Positions 2,866-28,691 of a stretch of 32,000 nucleotides of DNA are shown here, one piece after another. The stretch lies in assembly GCA_016700135.1 (NCBI GenBank), contig CP065004.1, positions 1,410,001 to 1,442,000 of the forward strand, read 5' to 3'. Under the pieces are notes generated by a model. The model was not told where the DNA came from, searched no databases, and worked only from the letters and a program-made list of their open reading frames with translations. How positions within the stretch are numbered: the stretch's first letter is position 1; the number at the start of each line of letters is the position of its first letter. The position numbers and the translations under genes were made by a program. This DNA comes from Candidatus Saccharimonadota bacterium. GTDB taxonomy: Bacteria; Patescibacteriota; Microgenomatia; UBA1406; GWC2-37-13.

Positions 2866-2893
2866 CTGGATCCCGGATCAAGTCCGGGATGAC
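2866..2893 (-). repeat. Hairpin repeat X, copy X1
   Basis: Plus strand CTGGATCCCGGATCAAGTCCGGGATGAC is the reverse complement of GTCATCCCGGACTTGATCCGGGATCCAG. It has an 8-bp stem ATCCCGGA/TCCGGGAT and loop CTTGA. It is 28/28 identical to copy X2 at 26749-26776. Intergenic. Confidence 0.85.
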
Positions 2894-2900
2894 ATGATAA

Positions 2901-3794: not shown

Positions 3795-3860
3795 ACGCTT
3801 ATTATCTAATATAACAGAAGCATGTGCCTTGTTGTCATGTGTTCGCGAACCGGCAAATCA

Positions 3861-3918
3861 GTATCTTGAGAAGATCCCGAACGATCCGCCAGCCGGCGGA
3901 CGGGAAGACAGGAGATAC
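3861..3918 (-). repeat. Nested three-tier hairpin (repeat variant Y, copy Y1) just 3' of rpsI
   Basis: Minus strand: GTATCT-cctgtct-TCCCG-TCCGCC-ggct-GGCGGA-tcgtt-CGGGA-tcttctca-AGATAC. Bases 3884-3903 are the exact reverse complement of 24210-24229. Confidence 0.7.
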
Positions 3919-8204: not shown

Positions 8205-8960
8205 CTACGCTAAAATGAAGGTTTCTTTATCAGTTACGGCAATGCTGTGTTCAAAGCATGCCGACATACTTCTATCTTGCGTAATAATTGACCACGGGAC
8301 ATTGGGCTCGTAGGCAATTTTTTCCGTTCCCATTGAATAGATAATTTCTACGGCAATCGTCAGTCCTGACGGTATCTTGTAGGTCTTCTCAATAGGCCGA
8401 TCCAAATAATTCAGGACATAGGGATCCTCATGCAGTTCATATCCGACTCCGTGACCGGTCAACTCTTTGAGGATATAGTATCCAGCTCCCGTCATTTCTT
8501 CCTCAATAAAGGCTGCAATCGTTCCTAATCGTTCACCCACTTTCACTTTTTTAATTGCATTCTCAAGAGTGTCATGCCCTTTTTTTAAAAATGCTTCTGT
8601 TTCAGGGTCGGTTTTGCCGCCTATTACAAACGTTGTCGCATAGTCGGTGTGCAGTCCGTCAAGGTACACTCCGATATCAACTGTCAGCACGTCTCCCTGC
8701 TTCAGTTTCTTCTTTTTGGAAGGCGGCGTATGCACCGTTTGTTCATTTACCGGCAGACATGTTGTCCATTTGTAACCGTCTACTCTTTTGAATGACGGTT
8801 CGGCTCCCCGCTCAATAATCAGTCTTTCCGCTTCTCGATCAATTTCATCAGTTGTCATACCGGCATGAATCTTCGGAAGTAATATATCTACGACTTCCCG
8901 GAGGATTGCTCCGCCTTTTTTCATGCTTTCAATCTCTTCCTTTGACTTGAGGTGTATCAT
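8205..8960 (-). CDS. map: Type I methionine aminopeptidase
   Basis: 251 aa. Metal-ligand regions are ...GDVLTVDIGVYLDGLHTDYATTF..., ...GHGVGYELHEDP..., ...TIAVEII... and ...CFEHSIAV. Synteny adk-map-infA. Confidence 0.92.
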   Translation of the reverse strand: MIHLKSKEEIESMKKGGAILREVVDILLPKIHAGMTTDEIDREAERLIIERGAEPSFKRVDGYKWTTCLPVNEQTVHTPPSKKKKLKQGDVLTVDIGVYLDGLHTDYATTFVIGGKTDPETEAFLKKGHDTLENAIKKVKVGERLGTIAAFIEEEMTGAGYYILKELTGHGVGYELHEDPYVLNYLDRPIEKTYKIPSGLTIAVEIIYSMGTEKIAYEPNVPWSIITQDRSMSACFEHSIAVTDKETFILA

Positions 8961-13194: not shown

Positions 13195-13737
13195 TTATGC
13201 TGCCTTTGCCTTCTTTCCCGGTTTGACACGGACGTGTTCGCCTTCATAACGAATACCTTTTCCTTTGTATGCGTCAGGTTTCTTTACTGATTTGATCTGA
13301 TGGGCTACTTCTCCGACAAGCTGTTTATCGATTCCGGAGATAATAATAATATTGTTTCCCTCCATCGAAAGCTGGATTCCTTCCGGCGCCTTAAAAATTA
13401 CAGGATGCGAAAGTCCGAGTTTCAGATTCAGATCCCGTCCCTGCATTTTACCGTTAAAACCGGTTCCGACTATCTCAAGTCTCTTTGACCATCCCTGATC
13501 TACGCCTTTCACTGCATTTGCAATGATACTGCGATAAAGACCGTGAGAAGCTTTCTGTCTTTTTGCTTCTGATTTTCTTTCAATATACAGTGTGTTTTCT
13601 TCGTTTCGGATACTCAAAAAATGAGGGAGTTCAAAAGATAAATTTCCTTTTGATCCTTTTACCTGAACAACCTGACCTTGAATATCAACTTGTACAGAAC
13701 TCGGTATCTGAATTGGACTTTGGCCTATTTTAGACAT
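13195..13737 (-). CDS. rplF: 50S ribosomal protein L6
   Basis: 180 aa. MSKIGQSPIQIPSSVQVDIQGQVVQVKGSKGNLS... and ...PDAYKGKGIRYEGEHVRVKPGK. Confidence 0.95.
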   Translation of the reverse strand: MSKIGQSPIQIPSSVQVDIQGQVVQVKGSKGNLSFELPHFLSIRNEENTLYIERKSEAKRQKASHGLYRSIIANAVKGVDQGWSKRLEIVGTGFNGKMQGRDLNLKLGLSHPVIFKAPEGIQLSMEGNNIIIISGIDKQLVGEVAHQIKSVKKPDAYKGKGIRYEGEHVRVKPGKKAKAA

Positions 13738-22447: not shown

Positions 22448-22476
22448 ATAATATAAAGTATTCCAATAAAAGTCAA
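22448..22476 (-). promoter_or_regulatory. Candidate tuf promoter P1, abutting the IS end
   Basis: Minus strand TTGACT (22471-22476), 17 nt, TATTAT (22448-22453). The -35 overlaps the transposase stop codon and lies next to the target-site duplication. Confidence 0.3.
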
Positions 22477-23555
22477 GAGAATGTATGAGTTCCATACATA
22501 TGGCACTCTTTAGGTAAAATAGATAATAGGTAATCCATAGGTGAAATATTGTTCAGGCTTTTGTGAACTCGCTTTGTATTGTACCAGACGAGGTATTCAA
22601 TAAGGTGACGATTGAATGATCCGATACCGGTCCACTTGGTATAGATGTAGGGGTTCATAAATTCTTCCTGGAGTGTTCTGTTTGCTCGCTCAATAAAGGC
22701 ATTGATCTTGGGACATCTGGGGTAGATAAAGAGGTGTGGGATATTGTTTTCTTCCAGATAGTCATGGAAGTTTCCCAGATACTCGAGGCCGTTATCTGTT
22801 TGTATGGTTTTTATACCATCTTGTATTGGGTATACTAGTTCCAGTCTTCTCATAAAATCAGCACCGTTTCGGCTGTTGAGTTTTGAGTATCCGTAGGAGA
22901 ACTGGAATTTGAGTTTGATGTCCACTGCATTGAAGACATACAGCTTGATTCCGTGTACAAACTTCGTGATGGTATCAATCTCAATGTATCCGGTATCTTC
23001 CACCTTGGGAGACCGCTTGACCTTCTGTCGGTACTTTACTTTCCGTTTTGCAAAGCCACTTGCTGGATTGTGATAGATCCGGTAGGTCTTGCGCTGCAGG
23101 TTGTGTCTTTTGATCACTTTTCCAATGGTTGACTCAGATATAGTTGAAATTCCTTCCTGTAGGCAATACTCATCAAGTAAGGGCTTGATCTTCTCCTTTC
23201 CCAAACAAAAGTATTGTTCTCGAATCTCTTTGATAAAGGATATGACCTTCGGGTGAGTCTCCATACGTCGGGGTGTCTTTGGCTTGGTTGTCTCTGGTAT
23301 CAGGCTATCCAACTGCCCTTCTGAATCTCGCCGTCTCTTCCTCCATCGAAACAATGTCCTTCGTGATATCCCATATGCATCAACTGCAGCTTGTATCCCG
23401 TACTTCTCTGCAAATGTCAGAACATCGTTTCTGATTTGTGCTACATCTGACTGATTGTAGTCTGATAGAGATCGTATCTTTTTCATAAGATCTCTATTGT
23501 ACTGCCAGTCATAACTCCTAATTACTCGAAGCTGATCTCCTCCCCATTTACTCAT
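22473..23555 (-). CDS. DDE transposase / integrase-core (rve) protein, IS481-like
   Basis: 360 aa. The N-terminal HTH region is ...ISRRTLFRWRKRRR... The catalytic region is ...IEIDTITKF..., ...IQTDNGLEY... and ...NAFIERANRTLQEE... (D, D, E), followed by ...YNTKRVHKSLN. The stop codon lies 7-9 nt beyond the inferred IS end. Confidence 0.9.
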   Translation of the reverse strand: MSKWGGDQLRVIRSYDWQYNRDLMKKIRSLSDYNQSDVAQIRNDVLTFAEKYGIQAAVDAYGISRRTLFRWRKRRRDSEGQLDSLIPETTKPKTPRRMETHPKVISFIKEIREQYFCLGKEKIKPLLDEYCLQEGISTISESTIGKVIKRHNLQRKTYRIYHNPASGFAKRKVKYRQKVKRSPKVEDTGYIEIDTITKFVHGIKLYVFNAVDIKLKFQFSYGYSKLNSRNGADFMRRLELVYPIQDGIKTIQTDNGLEYLGNFHDYLEENNIPHLFIYPRCPKINAFIERANRTLQEEFMNPYIYTKWTGIGSFNRHLIEYLVWYNTKRVHKSLNNISPMDYLLSILPKECHMYGTHTFS

Positions 23556-23600
23556 AGATGTTAGTTCCCTATGAGTGCCATATCTTTCGTAACTTATTCA
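22482..23600 (-). mobile_element. IS481-family insertion sequence (1119 bp) with imperfect ~28-nt terminal inverted repeats and a 5-bp target-site duplication
   Basis: Left end TGTATGAGTTCCATAC-ATATGGCACTC (22482-22508). The reverse complement of the right end is TGAATAAGTTACGAAAGATATGGCACTC (23573-23600). That gives 21/28 matches, including a perfect 11-mer. GAGAA flanks both ends (22477-22481 and 23601-23605). Confidence 0.7.
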
Positions 23601-23674
23601 GAGAAAAATGAATCCTTTTTAATATATGTATATATAAAGAGGGTCTGTATTTATCCGAACTCTAGTGCTACAAT

Positions 23675-26600
23675 GTGACCACTATGGCAACCGACTCGGT
23701 AAAACTGAATACATCGCAACAGCAGGCTGTCGAATACCACAAAGGACCGCTTCTTATTGTGGCCGGAGCCGGTACCGGCAAAACGACTACACTCGTCGAA
23801 AAAATCAAGTATCTCATCAAGAATGACCATGCAAAGCCTGAGGAAATTCTTTGCCTGACTTTCACCGACAAAGCGGCCTATGAAATGGAAGAACGTGTAG
23901 ACCGTGCCATGCCGTACGGATATTTTCAGATGTGGATCTCGACATTTCACAAGTTTGCAGACGAAATCCTGCGCGACGATATTTATCATCTCGGACTTAA
24001 TCCAGGTTATGATCTGATGACTCAGGCACAGTCAATCCTCTTTCTCAAAAAAAATCTCTTTCACCTCAATCTCAAATACTACCGTCCTGTCAGCAATCCC
24101 ACAAAATTTGTCGAAGGGCTGCTGCAGCATTTCTCCAGGCTTCATGATGAAGATATTTCTCCTGAGGAGTATAGTAAGTGGGTAAAAAAACTTTCGAAAT
24201 ATTCTCATTCCGTCCGCCGGCTGGCGGATGATCCGGAATCCAGGAACAAAAAAACTGGATCCCTGGTCATGCCTGGGATGACAACGGAACAAAATATAAG
24301 CACTGAAGAAATCCAGCAATACCAGGAACTTTCCGATGCATACGCTACCTATCAAAAGCTCAAAATCGAACATGACGTCATGGATTTTGACGATCTTATT
24401 TATTATCTGATCAAACTTTTCCGGGAAAGACCGAATGTTTTAAAGCAGTATCAAAACAAATTTAAGTATGTATTGGTTGACGAATTCCAGGATACGAATA
24501 TCGCACAGTACGAACTCATAAAGCTCCTCTGTCCCATAAAAACCAATCCGAATTTGACCGTCGTCGGAGATGATTCTCAGGCAATCTATAAATTCCGCGG
24601 AGCATCTGTCTCCAACATTATGACCTTCATGGAGGACTATCCGCAGGCAAAGCAGATAAGTCTTGTAGATAATTACCGATCCAATCAAACCATACTTGAT
24701 CATGCCTATAATCTCATCCAAAACAATAATCCCGATACCCTTGAAAGTAAATTGGGTATCTCAAAAGAGCTGGTCGGACATAAAAAAAATATAAAAGAAG
24801 CCGTACAGTTTGAGTTGTTTGCACACGGTGATCAGGAAGCGGATTGGATTGCAGAGTGTATCGCCGGTTACTTGCAGGATAAAACCTATACCTTCCAGGA
24901 TTTTGCAATTTTGGTAAGAGCGAACAATCACAGCGATCCGATCATCAATGCCTTGAAGCGTGAAGGTATTCCCTTTCAGTTTTTAGGGCCGGGAACGTTA
25001 TTTAAGCAACCTGAGGTCAAAGATCTGATCGCTTATCTGCAAGTTCTCGCTGATCTGAATGATACAGTTTCACTATACCGCGTTCTTTCCATGGATCATT
25101 TCGGAATTGATGAACAGGACCTGGTTCTCTATCTCTCCTTTGCGAAAAAAATTTCCCTTTCTCTTTTCCAGTCACTTGAAGTGGCACTTTCCTTTTTCCA
25201 TGAAGATTGGTGGAGAGAGGAGTTTGAAGTTTATCGCGAACATTTACCGCTCGTAAAAGAAGAAACAAAAGAGAAACTAATCCAGATAATCTCCATGATA
25301 AAAAAGCATCTCACCCGACTCCGCAAGGATTCAGCCGGTGAGATCGTGTTCCAGTTCCTGGAAGATACCGAATACCTCAAGAAACTCAGCAATCCTGAAA
25401 ATGAGTATGATCAGCGAAGAACATTGAACATAACGAAGTTTTTCCAGAAACTAAAAAGTATGGAGAATGAAATTGAAGACAGTTCGGTTTTTGCCGCAGT
25501 CGAGTATATCAATATGAGTCTGGAGATGGGTGAATCTCCTTTGGCATCCGAGTCTGATGCGGTTCAGACGAATGCTGTAAATATTCTCACGGTGCACGGT
25601 GCAAAAGGTTTGGAGTTTCCTGTCGTTTTTCTCCCGAATCTTATAAACGGCCGTTTTCCTACCCGCCGCAGACGGGAACAGATTCCGATACCTGATGCTC
25701 TGATAAAGGAGACAATGCCGAGCGGAGATTATCATATTCAGGAAGAAAGGCGGCTGTTTTATGTGGGGATCACCCGTGCAAAAGACAGGCTCTTTTTGTC
25801 CGCTTCTGAAATATACGGTGAAGGAGTACGGAAACAACGCATATCGCCGTTTGTAGCCGAAACAATCGGTGCCGAAAAAGTCACCGGCAAATCCGCAAAG
25901 CAATCCGAACAAAAAGAACAGCTATCCATTTTTGATTTTAAGAAAAAGGAAGAAGATCCTCCGATACCAATCCCGACCGAGGTTAAAAATCTTTCATACA
26001 GCCAGATCAGTACCTATGAACTCTGTCCCCTGAAATACAAATATCAGTACGTACTGAAAATCCCGACAGGACCCCACGGTGCGGCTTCATTCGGAAGCTC
26101 TGTGCACAACGCTCTGCAGAAGTTCTATCAGTTGTTTACGAAAGACAATGAAGTCGGGCTCACACATCTTCTGAATCTGCTTGAATCTTCCTGGATCCCG
26201 GTCGGCTATACCTCCCGGGAGGAACAGACGAAACAAAAAGAAGAAGCACGTCAGATGCTCGAAAACTATTTTCATTCTTTTCATACTCCTGAGATTGCAG
26301 TCAAAGATCTGGAGAAACTCTTCAAAATCAAAGTAGGAAGTGATGTATGTCTTACCGGAAAAATTGATCGGGTGGATGAAAAGGCTGACGGAGCGATCGA
26401 GATCATCGACTACAAAACCGGCAACATGCCTGATGAAAAGAAACTCAGGAAAGATATGCAGCTTGCCATATATGCAATGGCTGCAAATGACTACGGATTG
26501 TATCGCAAACCGATTGAAAAAATTAACCTTTCCTTCTACTATCTCGCCCATCGTGAAAAGGTAACGGTTACAAGAAACGAAGAAGATATTCACGATGTGA

Positions 26601-26713
26601 AGCTGAAAGTCAGAGAGATTGCTGATAAAATCCGCATGGGAGAGTTCCCGGCACGTACCGGTCCGTGGTGTGCACGGTGTGATTTCAGAATGATCTGCGA
26701 AGCCTGGCAGTGA
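23675..26713 (+). CDS. UvrD/PcrA-type superfamily-1 helicase fused to a C-terminal PD-(D/E)XK nuclease with a 4-Cys (Cas4/AddB-like) cluster
   Basis: 1012 aa. Helicase motifs: AGAGTGKTTT (I), VDEFQDTN (II), VVGDDSQAIYKFRGA (III), NYRSN (IV), LTVHGAKGLEFPVVFL (V), RRLFYVGITRAKDRLFL (VI). Nuclease: ...YELCPLKYKY..., GKIDRVD...IEIIDYKTG, QLAIYAMAA, CARCDFRMIC. The ORF-track start at 23675 is GTG; the ATG at 23684 (MATDS...) is an alternative. Confidence 0.9.
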   Translation: MTTMATDSVKLNTSQQQAVEYHKGPLLIVAGAGTGKTTTLVEKIKYLIKNDHAKPEEILCLTFTDKAAYEMEERVDRAMPYGYFQMWISTFHKFADEILRDDIYHLGLNPGYDLMTQAQSILFLKKNLFHLNLKYYRPVSNPTKFVEGLLQHFSRLHDEDISPEEYSKWVKKLSKYSHSVRRLADDPESRNKKTGSLVMPGMTTEQNISTEEIQQYQELSDAYATYQKLKIEHDVMDFDDLIYYLIKLFRERPNVLKQYQNKFKYVLVDEFQDTNIAQYELIKLLCPIKTNPNLTVVGDDSQAIYKFRGASVSNIMTFMEDYPQAKQISLVDNYRSNQTILDHAYNLIQNNNPDTLESKLGISKELVGHKKNIKEAVQFELFAHGDQEADWIAECIAGYLQDKTYTFQDFAILVRANNHSDPIINALKREGIPFQFLGPGTLFKQPEVKDLIAYLQVLADLNDTVSLYRVLSMDHFGIDEQDLVLYLSFAKKISLSLFQSLEVALSFFHEDWWREEFEVYREHLPLVKEETKEKLIQIISMIKKHLTRLRKDSAGEIVFQFLEDTEYLKKLSNPENEYDQRRTLNITKFFQKLKSMENEIEDSSVFAAVEYINMSLEMGESPLASESDAVQTNAVNILTVHGAKGLEFPVVFLPNLINGRFPTRRRREQIPIPDALIKETMPSGDYHIQEERRLFYVGITRAKDRLFLSASEIYGEGVRKQRISPFVAETIGAEKVTGKSAKQSEQKEQLSIFDFKKKEEDPPIPIPTEVKNLSYSQISTYELCPLKYKYQYVLKIPTGPHGAASFGSSVHNALQKFYQLFTKDNEVGLTHLLNLLESSWIPVGYTSREEQTKQKEEARQMLENYFHSFHTPEIAVKDLEKLFKIKVGSDVCLTGKIDRVDEKADGAIEIIDYKTGNMPDEKKLRKDMQLAIYAMAANDYGLYRKPIEKINLSFYYLAHREKVTVTRNEEDIHDVKLKVREIADKIRMGEFPARTGPWCARCDFRMICEAWQ
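24207..24243 (+). repeat. Nested hairpin repeat variant Y, copy Y2, inside the helicase ORF
   Basis: ATTCCG-TCCGCC-ggct-GGCGGA-tgat-CCGGAAT-CCAG. Bases 24210-24229 are identical to the reverse complement of 3884-3903. The 3' part ATGATCCGGAATCCAG resembles the 3' half of repeat X. Confidence 0.75.
24255..24282 (-). repeat. Hairpin repeat X, copy X6, inside the helicase ORF
   Basis: Plus strand CTGGATCCCTGGTCATGCCTGGGATGAC is the reverse complement of GTCATCCCAGGCATGACCAGGGATCCAG. One stem mismatch; loop CATGA instead of CTTGA. Confidence 0.8.
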
Positions 26714-26748
26714 AAGTAATAATGAGTGTTACGCAAACGTACTTCGTT

Positions 26749-26776
26749 GTCATCCCGGACTTGATCCGGGATCCAG
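26749..26776 (+). repeat. Hairpin repeat X, copy X2
   Basis: GTCATCCCGGACTTGATCCGGGATCCAG, 36 nt after the helicase stop. Identical to X1. Followed by a half copy, ATCCTGAACTTTGA (26781-26794). Confidence 0.85.
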
Positions 26777-26791
26777 TGTAATCCTGAACTT

Positions 26792-26815
26792 TGAGCCAAA
26801 GGCTCATCGTTTTTT
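26792..26815 (+). terminator. Weak intrinsic terminator candidate after the helicase gene
   Basis: TGAGCC-aaa-GGCTCA followed by TCGTTTTTT. The stem is only 6 bp. Confidence 0.4.
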
Positions 26816-26824
26816 GGACGGGTT

Positions 26825-27544
26825 TCAGGATCTTCTATACCTCAACACTACTTCATCATCCAGTTTCTCGACATTCAGAAGTTCAAACTGAGGCACTGCA
26901 TCGGAAGGGAACAAAATTCCTTCAGTCATCGTGAGAGTTTTTCCCGGTAGCGATCCGAAGATCTTCGGTGCAATTGTGAGATGGACTTCGTCGAGTACAT
27001 TCTCTTGAAGTAACTGCGCGATCAGTGTCGGGCCGCCGTCAATGAATACGTTTTGATGACCTTTTGAGTTGAGATAACGGATAAGATCTGCAATCTGTAC
27101 ATGCCCTGCGCCTTCTGTGACCTTTTCAACATTAAATGCCTGACTTACTTCACCGGTAATTTCTGTAGATGAATTCGTCAAAATCGTCGGTTTATATCCG
27201 TGATCGTTTGCAAGTTTCGATGCCAACTCTTCATCAGGGGAGGTTGTCAGAATGATAAACTCAGGAACACCTTCTTTGCCGATCTCTTTCCTGAATCCCT
27301 GATACATCTCATCATTGATCGTACGGATCGTGTATTTTCCGAATTGCATCGCGGTATTTTTTGCATCCACGATCGCATCGGCATGAGCTCTCAGATAGGT
27401 AAAATATTCGTAATCCTTTTTTGATCCGATCGGCCAGTATCCTTTCTCTTTTACGATAATCTTCCCGTCGATACTCGATACAAAACTGGTGAACATATAC
27501 GGCCGGTTTGCGGGTTTTTGAAAATCAAATGGTTGACGTGTCAT
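26825..27544 (-). CDS. RibD C-terminal-domain / dihydrofolate-reductase-like reductase
   Basis: The ORF track extends to 27616 through hairpin copy X4. I use the Met at 27542-27544 (MTRQPFDFQK...). Contains ...FVSSIDGKIIVKE... and ...VFIDGGPTLIAQLLQENVLDEVHLTIAPKIFG..., typical of RibD_C-family reductases. Confidence 0.8.
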   Translation of the reverse strand: MTRQPFDFQKPANRPYMFTSFVSSIDGKIIVKEKGYWPIGSKKDYEYFTYLRAHADAIVDAKNTAMQFGKYTIRTINDEMYQGFRKEIGKEGVPEFIILTTSPDEELASKLANDHGYKPTILTNSSTEITGEVSQAFNVEKVTEGAGHVQIADLIRYLNSKGHQNVFIDGGPTLIAQLLQENVLDEVHLTIAPKIFGSLPGKTLTMTEGILFPSDAVPQFELLNVEKLDDEVVLRYRRS

Positions 27545-27555
27545 GTTGTTTTTTA

Positions 27556-27583
27556 CTGGTTCCCAGGTCAAGCCTGGGATAAC
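27556..27583 (-). repeat. Hairpin repeat X, copy X4 (slightly degenerate)
   Basis: Plus strand CTGGTTCCCAGGTCAAGCCTGGGATAAC is the reverse complement of GTTATCCCAGGCTTGACCTGGGAACCAG. Confidence 0.8.
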
Positions 27584-27611
27584 AGACAAGTAAATTAAAT
27601 ATATTATAACT

Positions 27612-27639
27612 GTCATCCTGAACTTGATTCAGGATCCAG
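27612..27639 (+). repeat. Hairpin repeat X, copy X3
   Basis: GTCATCCTGAACTTGATTCAGGATCCAG (stem ATCCTGAA/TTCAGGAT), 2 nt from the stop codon of the GIY-YIG gene. Confidence 0.85.
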
Positions 27640-27641
27640 TT

Positions 27642-27932
27642 TTATTTTATCATTTCTTTATAAAGATCATTCCATTGCGGATTTTTCGACTCGATTAGCT
27701 CTAATTTCCAGGCTCTTTTCCAAGCTTTTAACTGTTTTTCACGCCTTAAAGCTCGATTTACATCATTAAATACTTCATAATAAACGAGAATATGTACGTT
27801 ATACTGAGCAGTAAATCCTTTCACTATTTTATTTCTATGTTCCCAAGTACGTTTAATCAGATCAGAAGTAACTCCAATATAAAGTGTTCCGTTGCGTTGA
27901 CTTGCCAATATGTATACAAAATATGTTCCCAT
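27642..27932 (-). CDS. Small stand-alone GIY-YIG nuclease-domain protein (COG2827/UPF0213-like)
   Basis: The ORF track extends to 27974 through hairpin copy X5. I use the Met at 27930-27932: MGTYFVYILASQRNGTLYIGVTSDLIKRTWEHRN...REKQLKAWKRAWKLELIE. It has GIY (YFVYIL), YIG (LYIGVT), R..EH and E..LK motifs. Confidence 0.85.
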   Translation of the reverse strand: MGTYFVYILASQRNGTLYIGVTSDLIKRTWEHRNKIVKGFTAQYNVHILVYYEVFNDVNRALRREKQLKAWKRAWKLELIESKNPQWNDLYKEMIK

Positions 27933-27939
27933 TATTGTG

Positions 27940-27967
27940 CTGGATCCCAGGTCAAGCCTGGGATGAC
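27940..27967 (-). repeat. Hairpin repeat X, copy X5
   Basis: Plus strand CTGGATCCCAGGTCAAGCCTGGGATGAC is the reverse complement of GTCATCCCAGGCTTGACCTGGGATCCAG (stem ATCCCAGG/CCTGGGAT), 7 nt upstream of the GIY-YIG ATG. Confidence 0.85.
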
Positions 27968-28016
27968 AATGCACCTGTAAAGAATTTCAAGCGGATTATA
28001 AACATTAACTTCTCCC

Positions 28017-28691
28017 TTAGTTCACAATCACCTTCGATTTTTTTGCATCCTTTTTCAGCCAGTTCACACCGATATAGACAAGAGGTGTCTCAATGACGGA
28101 CATCGAACATTTAAGAAGCCAGTACGGCAGAATCAAACTGAACAAGAAGGAAACATTCTCATCAAATCCGCGATCCAGAGAATAAAATGCCAAGGTCATA
28201 AAGAGCGCAGTATCAATAAACTGTGCAATAAAGTTCGAAGCATTGTTCCTCAGCCATAACTTACTTTTTCCCATTCTCTTTCTGATTTTGCTGAAAATCG
28301 CAATATCCAGAAAGTCGGCAACTGCAAACGCAGTCAGACTTGCGATGGTAATACGTAATGATTTTCCGAAAACAGAATCATAGGCCGCTTCACTCTCCGC
28401 AAATCTGCCGGAAGGGGGAAGAGAGATCGAAAGAACGATAAAGAGCATCAACAGAACGATCATCGTGAGACCCGTTCGGACAATACTCCGTGCGCGCTCC
28501 GCTCCGTATACTTCAATAACAACGTCATTGATGGTAAACAACAACGGAAGAAGGAATATTGCAACACTGGCATTCAAAGTATACGTCCCGAAAGTCACAA
28601 GAGGAAATGTTTTGGCACCCATCAGTTCCGAAACGATAATCCCGAAAATGTATACTCCAACCAGAAGATCCATTTTTTGAATGTTGAACAT
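28017..28691 (-). CDS. yhhQ: VUT-family membrane transporter (YhhQ/COG1738-like, queuosine-precursor transporter family)
   Basis: 224 aa, multi-TM. ...LPLLFTINDVVIEVYGAERARSIV... and ...RITIASLTAFAVADFLDIAIFSKIRKRMGKSKLWLRNNASNFIAQFIDTALFMTLAF... parallel the conserved YhhQ blocks. Confidence 0.75.
   Translation of the reverse strand: MFNIQKMDLLVGVYIFGIIVSELMGAKTFPLVTFGTYTLNASVAIFLLPLLFTINDVVIEVYGAERARSIVRTGLTMIVLLMLFIVLSISLPPSGRFAESEAAYDSVFGKSLRITIASLTAFAVADFLDIAIFSKIRKRMGKSKLWLRNNASNFIAQFIDTALFMTLAFYSLDRGFDENVSFLFSLILPYWLLKCSMSVIETPLVYIGVNWLKKDAKKSKVIVN

Follow-up and report, generated by a model that had tools for sequence, protein, structure and literature searches.

In Neisseria, the units known as Neisseria intergenic mosaic elements (NIMEs) are bounded by inverted copies of the dRS3 repeat. 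Chenal et al. (2025, Nat Commun; PMC11893778) defined the Neisseria Transformation Sequence (NTS) CGTCATTCCCGCGMAVGCGGGAATCYRG together with the broader Ssn-related motifs (SRMs), which are hairpins with a directional upstream flank. Their partner Ssn is a single-domain GIY-YIG nuclease of ~94 amino acids that binds the SRM solely as single-stranded DNA (ssDNA), in one orientation, and cuts a few nucleotides upstream of the motif, with no action on double-stranded DNA or RNA; the ssn gene typically has a motif on both sides, as it does for 42% of ssnA homologues, and NTS copies are seldom located within genes (2%) in N. meningitidis (PMC11893778). Ssn nucleases are classed as cd10448 (GIY-YIG_unchar_3). 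Rickettsia palindromic elements (RPEs) are in-frame palindromic repeats in unrelated genes, which are read through and have been assessed as compatible with how the host protein folds (PMC10969869). Here we analyse an 81-nt segment that is read in frame within the gene of a UvrD/PcrA-type helicase-nuclease, in a stretch of 32,000 nt of a Candidatus Roizmanbacteria genome (contig CP065004.1 of assembly GCA_016700135.1, positions 1,410,001 to 1,442,000 of the forward strand), referred to as the window. Very probably, this segment is a gene-less, non-autonomous doublet of two inverted SRM hairpins, with their GTCAT heads facing outwards, lodged in a loop of the helicase.

The insertion occupies window positions 24203-24283 and consists of a 41-nt Y-type hairpin, an 11-nt spacer and a 29-nt X-type hairpin, both hairpins pointing outwards (Table 1). 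A previous reading made from the sequence only had proposed an in-frame composite repeat of about 25 codons at this place; the features that it named were all found within 1-4 nt of where it had put them, and its insertion stands, with a size of 27 codons rather than 25. As that reading had noted, the open reading frame (ORF) continues stop-free through ...SKYSHSVRRLADDPESRNKKTGSLVMPGMTTEQN... between TFHKFADEIL and VDEFQDTN, and the segment itself translates as SHSVRRLADDPESRNKKTGSLVMPGMT. Doublets are stop-free on the sense strand solely in the frame that begins at the TGT (TCT/AGT) head, and therefore every in-gene copy reads C/S-H-...-G-M-T. Because 81 nt is a multiple of three and the frame is open at the TGT/TCT head, the unit is read through, presumably as a disordered loop of 27 residues. 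The Y-type hairpin does not form a separate family: it shares with the X type the CAT...ATCCAG flanks and a TGAT loop remnant, and we therefore count it as belonging to the X type (TCTCAT-TCCG...CGGA-ATCCAG), its loop housing a nested GC hairpin of 16 nt. Its head in the window is CTCAT, mutated from GTCAT, while a close relative (L001, see below) carries TGTCAT.

Both halves have counterparts elsewhere in the window. Positions 24210-24229 are the exact reverse complement of 3884-3903 over 20 nt (0 in 100 shuffles), and the X copy at 24255-24282 has a twin at 27940-27967 with 2 mismatches (0 expected by chance) and groups with five other copies (2861-2894, 26748-26777, 27551-27584, 27611-27640 and 27935-27968), so that the two matches on which the sequence-only reading had relied are reproduced. 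When folded as ssDNA, the left half (Y2) adopts the two tiers that had been described (-11.3 kcal/mol, z = -2.9), the hairpin of the right half (X6) is less stable and contains one mismatch (-4.4 kcal/mol, z = -1.1), and the entire 81-nt unit reaches -18.0 kcal/mol (z = -3.9), a fold equalled by 0 of 200 shuffles. The doublet is also present at the helicase site in three other independent assemblies (GCA_002329205.1, Logan SRR5321203 and GCA_964504235.1), and it is therefore no artefact. No Rfam family reached its gathering score in the window, and searches with E-value thresholds over 23600-28100 returned chance-level matches, none of them on the hairpins; a known structured-RNA family is thereby ruled out as an explanation. 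At 25714-25812, RF03531 ('C. difficile sRNA included into helicase gene') matched weakly, scoring 39 bits where its gathering score is 65; the likeliest cause is conservation of the helicase coding sequence.

The window X hairpin TGTCATCCCGGACTTGATCCGGGATCCAG shows the anatomy of an SRM, agreeing with the NTS consensus in its flanks and in its hairpin. The orienting flanks, GTCAT upstream and ATCYRG downstream, are read as TGTCAT...ATCCAG in X6 and as TCTCAT...ATCCAG, with one substitution, in Y2, and both ssDNA folding and stem covariation point to a hairpin-forming, imperfect palindrome within the size range of 20-50 nt. The published search pattern, HGTCWYN(0-2)YYVSBRHN(0-5)WNVSBRGN(0-2)RNCYNB, was built from 29 genomes and matches just 2866-2894 and 26748-26776 in the window (2 matches against 0.07 in shuffles). 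We also scanned across phyla, with one genome per species, for TGTCATCC-N13-GGATCCAG, and found at least 120 stretches of DNA with matches, from Patescibacteria, Proteobacteria, Nitrospirota, Verrucomicrobiota, Planctomycetota and others. Among the 148 matches listed, about five are without any hairpin, and a minority, whose contiguous stem is shorter, make up a second class; pairing at the four free positions of the stem is seen in 82-97% of copies (44-61% when shuffled), and the loop CTTGA is conserved. This occurrence of the hairpin type in many phyla, with covarying stems, bears out the earlier proposal that the segment is derived from a repeat, and the published pattern is narrower than the diversity of SRMs seen in the scan. 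Only nine of these 148 copies lie within 150 nt of a GIY-YIG gene, most being solo or in doublets, and the idea that every SRM adjoins such a gene is accordingly rejected. Where two SRMs are adjacent (spacer of at most 40 nt), the pair is outward in 40 cases, inward in 3 and direct in 4 among the 120 loci listed, which come from many phyla. Literature searches for GIY-YIG proteins linked with palindromic repeats or with Patescibacteria gave nothing relevant; the link to Ssn came via dRS3.

The host protein (QQS43968.1, 1009 amino acids from an ATG at 23684, annotated by NCBI under Candidatus Roizmanbacteria, on a contig of 1.45 Mb) has Pfam matches to UvrD-helicase (4.5e-76), UvrD_C (5.2e-59) and PDDEXK_1 (5.3e-44), and a fold search with its model returned PcrA and UvrD best, followed by AddA and AdnB. 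The gap that the sequence-only reading had expected in orthologues falls exactly at the segment: 45 residues separate two conserved anchors in the window protein, against a modal length of 16 among 120 aligned orthologues, and a homologous peptide was looked for, and not found, in orthologues without these hairpin motifs. Residues 169-216 of the host align to a 7-residue loop of PcrA (164-170) within what we take to be domain 1B of the superfamily 1 helicases PcrA and UvrD, with the limits of their published structures; this agrees with the 1B location that had been suggested. In the PcrA crystal entry 1QHH the separate deposited chains break at the insertion point. The AlphaFold2 model of the host has a mean pLDDT of 81.5, which falls below 50 at residues 191-203 and is near 90 in the helices on either side, as would be expected of the surface loop anticipated earlier. 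The insertion thus sits in a permissive surface loop of the modelled protein, a loop that is probably disordered.

In the comparison with a 93% relative (L001; GCA_002329205.1, DCTC01000002.1), the codon pattern within the doublet is the reverse of that in the rest of the gene. Inside it, one codon differs synonymously and 5 non-synonymously (92.6% nucleotide identity), against 367 synonymous and 65 non-synonymous differences in the rest of the helicase (83.6% identity); for 27 codons the expectation would be about 10 synonymous differences, and a binomial estimate for one or fewer is about 5e-5. The helicase outside the doublet is under purifying selection; in the doublet it is the DNA that is conserved or homogenised, the encoded protein being almost free to vary. 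Because of this difference between inside and outside, we consider that the doublet evolves at the level of DNA and not of protein.

The neighbourhood also holds a gene of the type expected of an Ssn partner. A single-domain GIY-YIG gene with SRMs on both sides lies ~3.3 kb downstream of the helicase doublet, the cassette spanning 27611-27968 with its heads outward. PF01541 covers residues 18-91 of the mechanical ORF, with no other domain found; this ORF extends to 27974 because reading continues through the upstream SRM. The 96-residue protein has no match in NCBIfam and matched no solved structure by sequence (PDB). SRMs likewise stand on both sides of a paralogue in the same genome (P0231), and the same arrangement occurs around GIY-YIG genes in L210, L022, L051, L082 and L115. 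In L210, a 69% relative (GCA_030699195.1), the halves of the helicase doublet closely match both SRMs that flank the GIY-YIG gene of that genome and are joined by 11 nt, the differences being confined to a single stem base and the initial base of either head, and both halves are also essentially identical to the cassette ends of the window. From its sequence, the L210 doublet looks like an internal-deletion derivative. Similarly, the right half of the helicase doublet in L001 has exactly the sequence of the SRM that lies at the GIY-YIG gene's 5' end.

A second conserved gene shows presence and absence of the same unit. In L001, a Y+X doublet of 81 nt (13421-13501), in the same frame as the helicase copy, lies within RibD_C and adds 27 residues, CHAVRQLADDSESSDSISGSRIESGMT; the RibD_C gene of the window (26825-27544) is without it and has at that place EKVTEGAG, eight unrelated residues. 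At the helicase site, the GCA_964504235.1 allele, 96-97% identical, carries a plain X+X doublet of 69 nt, and between alleles of this identity the loop has been swapped (GACT in P0001, TCCGCCGGCTGGCGGA in the window), which is no simple deletion. The SRM downstream of the helicase in L001 (13067-13117) has a 22-nt loop insertion, CCTTGCCCGCCGATTTAGGAGG, relative to window 26748-26776; this insertion and the nested hairpin of the Y type suggest that SRM loops are hot spots of insertion or replacement.

Doublets or their remnants recur in the same helicase loop of P0001-P0005, P0007-P0009, P0014 and P0017, interleaved with orthologues that are without them (P0006, P0010-P0013, P0015, P0016 and P0024), and on distant branches in P0051, P0053, P0089 and the metagenomic L146. 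At the DNA level, at least four different hairpin classes occupy the loop. In L211, a 68% relative, a doublet of another class (CCTGAG...GAAGG type; 8510-8600) is followed by an apparent X-type right end, TCTGGGATGACA, which suggests successive insertions at one place. No SRM-like hairpin was found elsewhere in the helicase gene in the ~90 helicase loci examined as DNA. A metagenome scan for helicase relatives returned only distant ones (at most 52% identity), of which 1 in 80 (L146) has an SRM-like hairpin at the site. Our reading of this distribution is that the loop was occupied long ago in the Roizmanbacteria clade and its occupant later replaced, with further, independent gains elsewhere; the tree is a neighbour-joining one, from which the number of events cannot be counted firmly. 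The recurrence is sufficiently explained by selection for a loop that tolerates insertions, and a target preference is possible. Other genes contain true hairpins in frame as well: MnmE (L113), a flavin amine oxidase (L025), a TonB linker (L095) and a Wzy-type membrane protein (L072), all taken from loci of the genome scan in unrelated phyla, Pfam matches supporting each gene on both flanks of the hairpin or next to it. These cases fit the 2% of NTS copies reported in genes of N. meningitidis (PMC11893778). In the MnmE gene the SRM is accompanied by a local duplication, with LDERRETRDESCASCHPE present twice.

If the segment is such a doublet, its topology would be that of the SRM-GIY-YIG-SRM cassette minus the gene, placed between codons in the permissive 1B loop so that the enzyme would remain unbroken. 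Its biology would then be played out on DNA, either strand folding into hairpins when single-stranded. On each strand, one hairpin would offer the directional GTCAT flank bound by nucleases of the Ssn family, to be cut a few nucleotides upstream. The outward arrangement would thus give one cleavable head per strand, at the 5' boundary of the unit itself, and the two nicks would bracket the element, which host repair or copying could then move, delete or overwrite. The neighbouring GIY-YIG protein would in this case be a true Ssn that recognises these copies, and cuts or repair near SRMs may be the route by which the doublet arrived and by which it came to resemble other copies, with Ssn as the putative agent of its mobilisation.

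Going one step further, SRM doublets might, like REPINs, be the non-autonomous version of a mobile element that has the 96-residue GIY-YIG gene as its sole gene, the helicase and RibD_C insertions being recent transposition-like events; we advance this tentatively, as a possibility that falls short of being probable. Several points weigh against the main reading of the segment given above. To our knowledge, GIY-YIG nucleases hydrolyse DNA and have no strand-transfer or joining activity. The inverted motifs leave just one cleavable site per strand. In the comparisons of the window with L001, L003 and L124, neither a target-site duplication nor a clean empty site could be defined, the flanks being too diverged in the helicase as in RibD_C. 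Low synonymous divergence could result from gene conversion and not from selection on the hairpins. Neither helicase hairpin fits the published SRM pattern, X6 departing from it at a single position of the stem (A instead of the required S) and Y2 in its head and loop length, for which reason we file both as divergent or decaying members and not as canonical SRMs; with the CTCAT head on the left and the mismatched stem on the right, this copy may no longer be a substrate. Finally, the mobility of the SRM-ssn-SRM unit was put forward only as a hypothesis by the authors who described Ssn (PMC11893778).

The lack of any known joining activity and of an observed target-site duplication makes a serious rival of another route, in which the doublet is derived from a repeat but was copied in and kept similar by ordinary recombination (for instance by gene conversion, or by a switch of template from one hairpin repeat to another close by as DNA is replicated or repaired), Ssn being irrelevant to its spread. 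Six of the eight copies in the window lie within 4 kb of each other, and both the loop swap between alleles and the 22-nt loop insertion in L001 are changes of the kind that this route would leave. The ends, however, are sharp and constant, TGTCAT...ATGACA, and enclose 81 nt in each of two unrelated genes. Non-specific recombination does not predict the excess of outward doublets over the seven other close arrangements, and the close match of the L210 doublet to both ends of its GIY-YIG cassette also speaks against it. On balance we find it rather unlikely that recombination without Ssn accounts for the spread of the doublet.

Another explanation would be that the insertion has been co-opted, its peptide, or its hairpins in mRNA or DNA, serving the helicase, for instance as a regulatory site through which Ssn, or a folded hairpin, would tune the expression of an enzyme that processes DNA ends. 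Occupancy of this one loop is persistent in the lineages listed above, nucleotide conservation is higher in the doublet than in the flanking gene, and the host helicase-nuclease may itself make ssDNA, the form of substrate that Ssn uses. Most orthologues are nevertheless without the doublet, even such close ones as P0006 and P0010-P0013; between 93% relatives the peptide differs at 5 of its 27 codons, and it is predicted to be disordered, the classes of hairpin at the site vary by lineage, and SRMs stand in frame in the four unrelated proteins named above. We therefore regard co-option as improbable. That the segment is a native, lineage-specific loop of the helicase, from which the intergenic copies derive or which they resemble by chance, has nothing beyond the intact ORF in its favour and can hardly be entertained, native origin being excluded by the 20-nt and 28-nt repeat matches with 0 expected by chance, by the absence of the segment from most orthologues, by the motif with its covarying stems in intergenic DNA across phyla, and by a codon-substitution pattern that is the reverse of that of the coding region.

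Table 1. Helicase doublet, putative ssn cassette and other SRM copies in the window (window coordinates; "." denotes a feature given without strand).
Feature	Position	Strand	Sequence or basis
Host gene, UvrD/PcrA-type superfamily 1 helicase with C-terminal PD-(D/E)XK (Cas4/AddB-like) nuclease	23675..26713	+	Pfam
Doublet, left half, Y-type SRM	24203..24243	+	TCTCAT-TCCG-[TCCGCC GGCT GGCGGA]-TGATC-CGGA-ATCCAG
Doublet, A-rich 11-nt spacer	24244..24254	+	GAACAAAAAAA; translated within R-N-K-K-T
Doublet, right half, X-type SRM (X6), GTCAT head on minus strand	24255..24283	-	TGTCATCCCAGGCATGACCAGGGATCCAG; one stem mismatch
Canonical SRM between convergent helicase and RibD_C genes	26748..26776	+	Fits published pattern; -8.4 kcal/mol, z = -3.4
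Degenerate SRM, TGTTAT head, upstream of RibD_C	27555..27584	-	Sequence
SRM abutting 3' end of putative ssn, 2 nt from stop	27611..27639	+	TGTCATCCTGAACTTGATTCAGGATCCAG; hairpin -6.4 kcal/mol, z = -2.6
Putative ssn gene, single-domain GIY-YIG nuclease, 96 amino acids, QQS43970.1 (= P0121)	27642..27932	-	Pfam GIY-YIG 2.4e-15
SRM 7 nt upstream of putative ssn ATG	27940..27968	-	TGTCATCCCAGGCTTGACCTGGGATCCAG on the sense strand of the gene; sequence
Canonical SRM between two glycosyltransferase genes	2866..2894	-	100% complementary to 26748-26777
Degenerate intergenic X+Y doublet	3833..3910	.	TGTCATGTGTTCGCGAACCGGCAAATCAG (3833-3861, +), 11-nt spacer, Y-type SRM (3873-3910, -)

The remaining copies in the window are intergenic (Table 1). 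The doublet at 3833-3910, in whose Y half the 3884-3903 match falls, folds weakly (z = -1.3) and is for this reason judged to be probably decaying. RibD_C is bracketed by the outward-facing SRMs at 26748-26776 and 27555-27584, an SRM-gene-SRM arrangement; the 'NTS-gene-NTS' configuration has been linked to reduced transformation in Neisseria (PMC11893778). The GIY-YIG gene stands between RibD_C and Vut_1 in the window, in L001 and in L210 (6190-6477), and is absent there from L003, a 79% relative (13598-13611, a 12-nt intergenic gap), and from L211 (12294-12512); this patchy presence reflects repeated gain or else the loss, on more than one occasion, of an old insertion. Many GIY-YIG proteins in the databases (P0126, P0133, P0160, P0170, P0211 and others) begin with N-terminal extensions such as CHPKLDLGSS, CHSRANGNPG or VIPAKAGIQ, which are read-through of the upstream hairpin, the start codon having probably been miscalled. 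Between tuf and the helicase, at 22473-23555, lies an rve-type transposase gene of an insertion sequence (IS); as it is missing from that place in L001, L125 and L211, which are syntenic relatives, it looks like a separate and recent IS insertion.

Set against the systems described so far, the locus comes closest to SRM/NTS-Ssn, with which it shares a hairpin of ~29 nt with a GTCAT 5' flank and an ATCCAG (ATCYRG) 3' flank, multiple and mostly intergenic copies in many phyla, and a GIY-YIG gene for ~95 amino acids with the motif on both sides. It differs in being a translated, in-frame 81-nt unit of two motifs in a conserved gene (doublets and in-frame copies are not described in PMC11893778), in the nested hairpin of its two-tier half, in its departure from the published pattern and in its host, a member of the Patescibacteria, or Candidate Phyla Radiation (CPR). 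NIMEs are likewise short units bounded by inverted hairpins of the ATTCCC-N8-GGGAAT type, paired outwards (for dRS3 see PMC11893778), but they are intergenic, usually have 50-150 bp between repeats and form arrays, whereas the unit described here has an 11-nt spacer and is coding. An Azospirillaceae contig (L041, 2588-3041) holds a NIME-like array of four tandem units with a 124-bp period, each an outward doublet of two hairpin classes.

The comparison with RPEs made in the sequence-only reading holds for behaviour, since in-frame, fold-compatible copies are found here in the helicase 1B loop, in RibD_C of L001 and in other proteins. It does not extend to membership of the Rickettsia families: RPEs are ~100-150 bp long, fall into families specific to Rickettsia and are not known to work with a nuclease, and an SRM-like unit of 81 nt in Roizmanbacteria is set apart from them by description. 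With REPIN/RAYT systems the locus shares inverted hairpin doublets with a short spacer, far outnumbering a single-copy, repeat-flanked gene, the predominance of inverted doublets, and recognition of an ssDNA hairpin with a short flank. The partner is in contrast a GIY-YIG hydrolase and not an IS200/IS605-like Y1 transposase; the repeat-flanked gene is the GIY-YIG gene, with no Y1 transposase in that position among the part of the window ORFs scanned against Pfam. No covalent-intermediate chemistry is known for it, and the mode of spread, if any, must therefore differ from that of REPIN/RAYT. Bacterial MITEs, which are internal-deletion derivatives of IS, resemble the doublet in having terminal inverted repeats that match the ends of a parent, as in L210 and in the right half of the L001 copy, but no target-site duplication came to light here, where filled sites differ too much from empty ones for the junctions to be read, and no recognised transposase is encoded by the parent. 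The doublet thus fits SRM/NTS-Ssn by its anatomy and gene association, NIMEs and REPINs by the architecture of the pair, and RPEs or in-frame MITEs by its behaviour, and it lies outside the RPE and REP/RAYT families.

The repeat system itself has been known since 2025, and the doublet is a further example of it; what is new, and modest, is a translated 27-codon doublet in a repair helicase of Patescibacteria, the recurrent use of one loop, and the comparative signs of turnover. The authors who described Ssn left open the mobility of the SRM-ssn-SRM unit and its role outside Neisseria. A gene-less doublet resembling the ends of a cassette, the presence and absence of the unit in RibD_C and the codon pattern at the DNA level offer comparative handles on the question of mobility. 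Should the doublets prove to be forms of a mobile element, they would be the first comparative evidence that Ssn/SRM moves, by a mechanism unlike that of any known transposase, namely a hydrolytic ssDNA nick upstream of each outward head followed by host repair or copying. Such elements would then add peptide loops to conserved proteins of Patescibacteria as RPEs do in Rickettsia. As Rickettsia is itself rich in SRMs (PMC11893778), a link between RPEs and SRMs is conceivable. Peptides of the form CHP...GMT or VIP...GIQ in predicted proteins are usually read-through of a hairpin and not protein motifs, and SRM repeats can lengthen the surface loops of conserved enzymes in the reduced genomes of the CPR.

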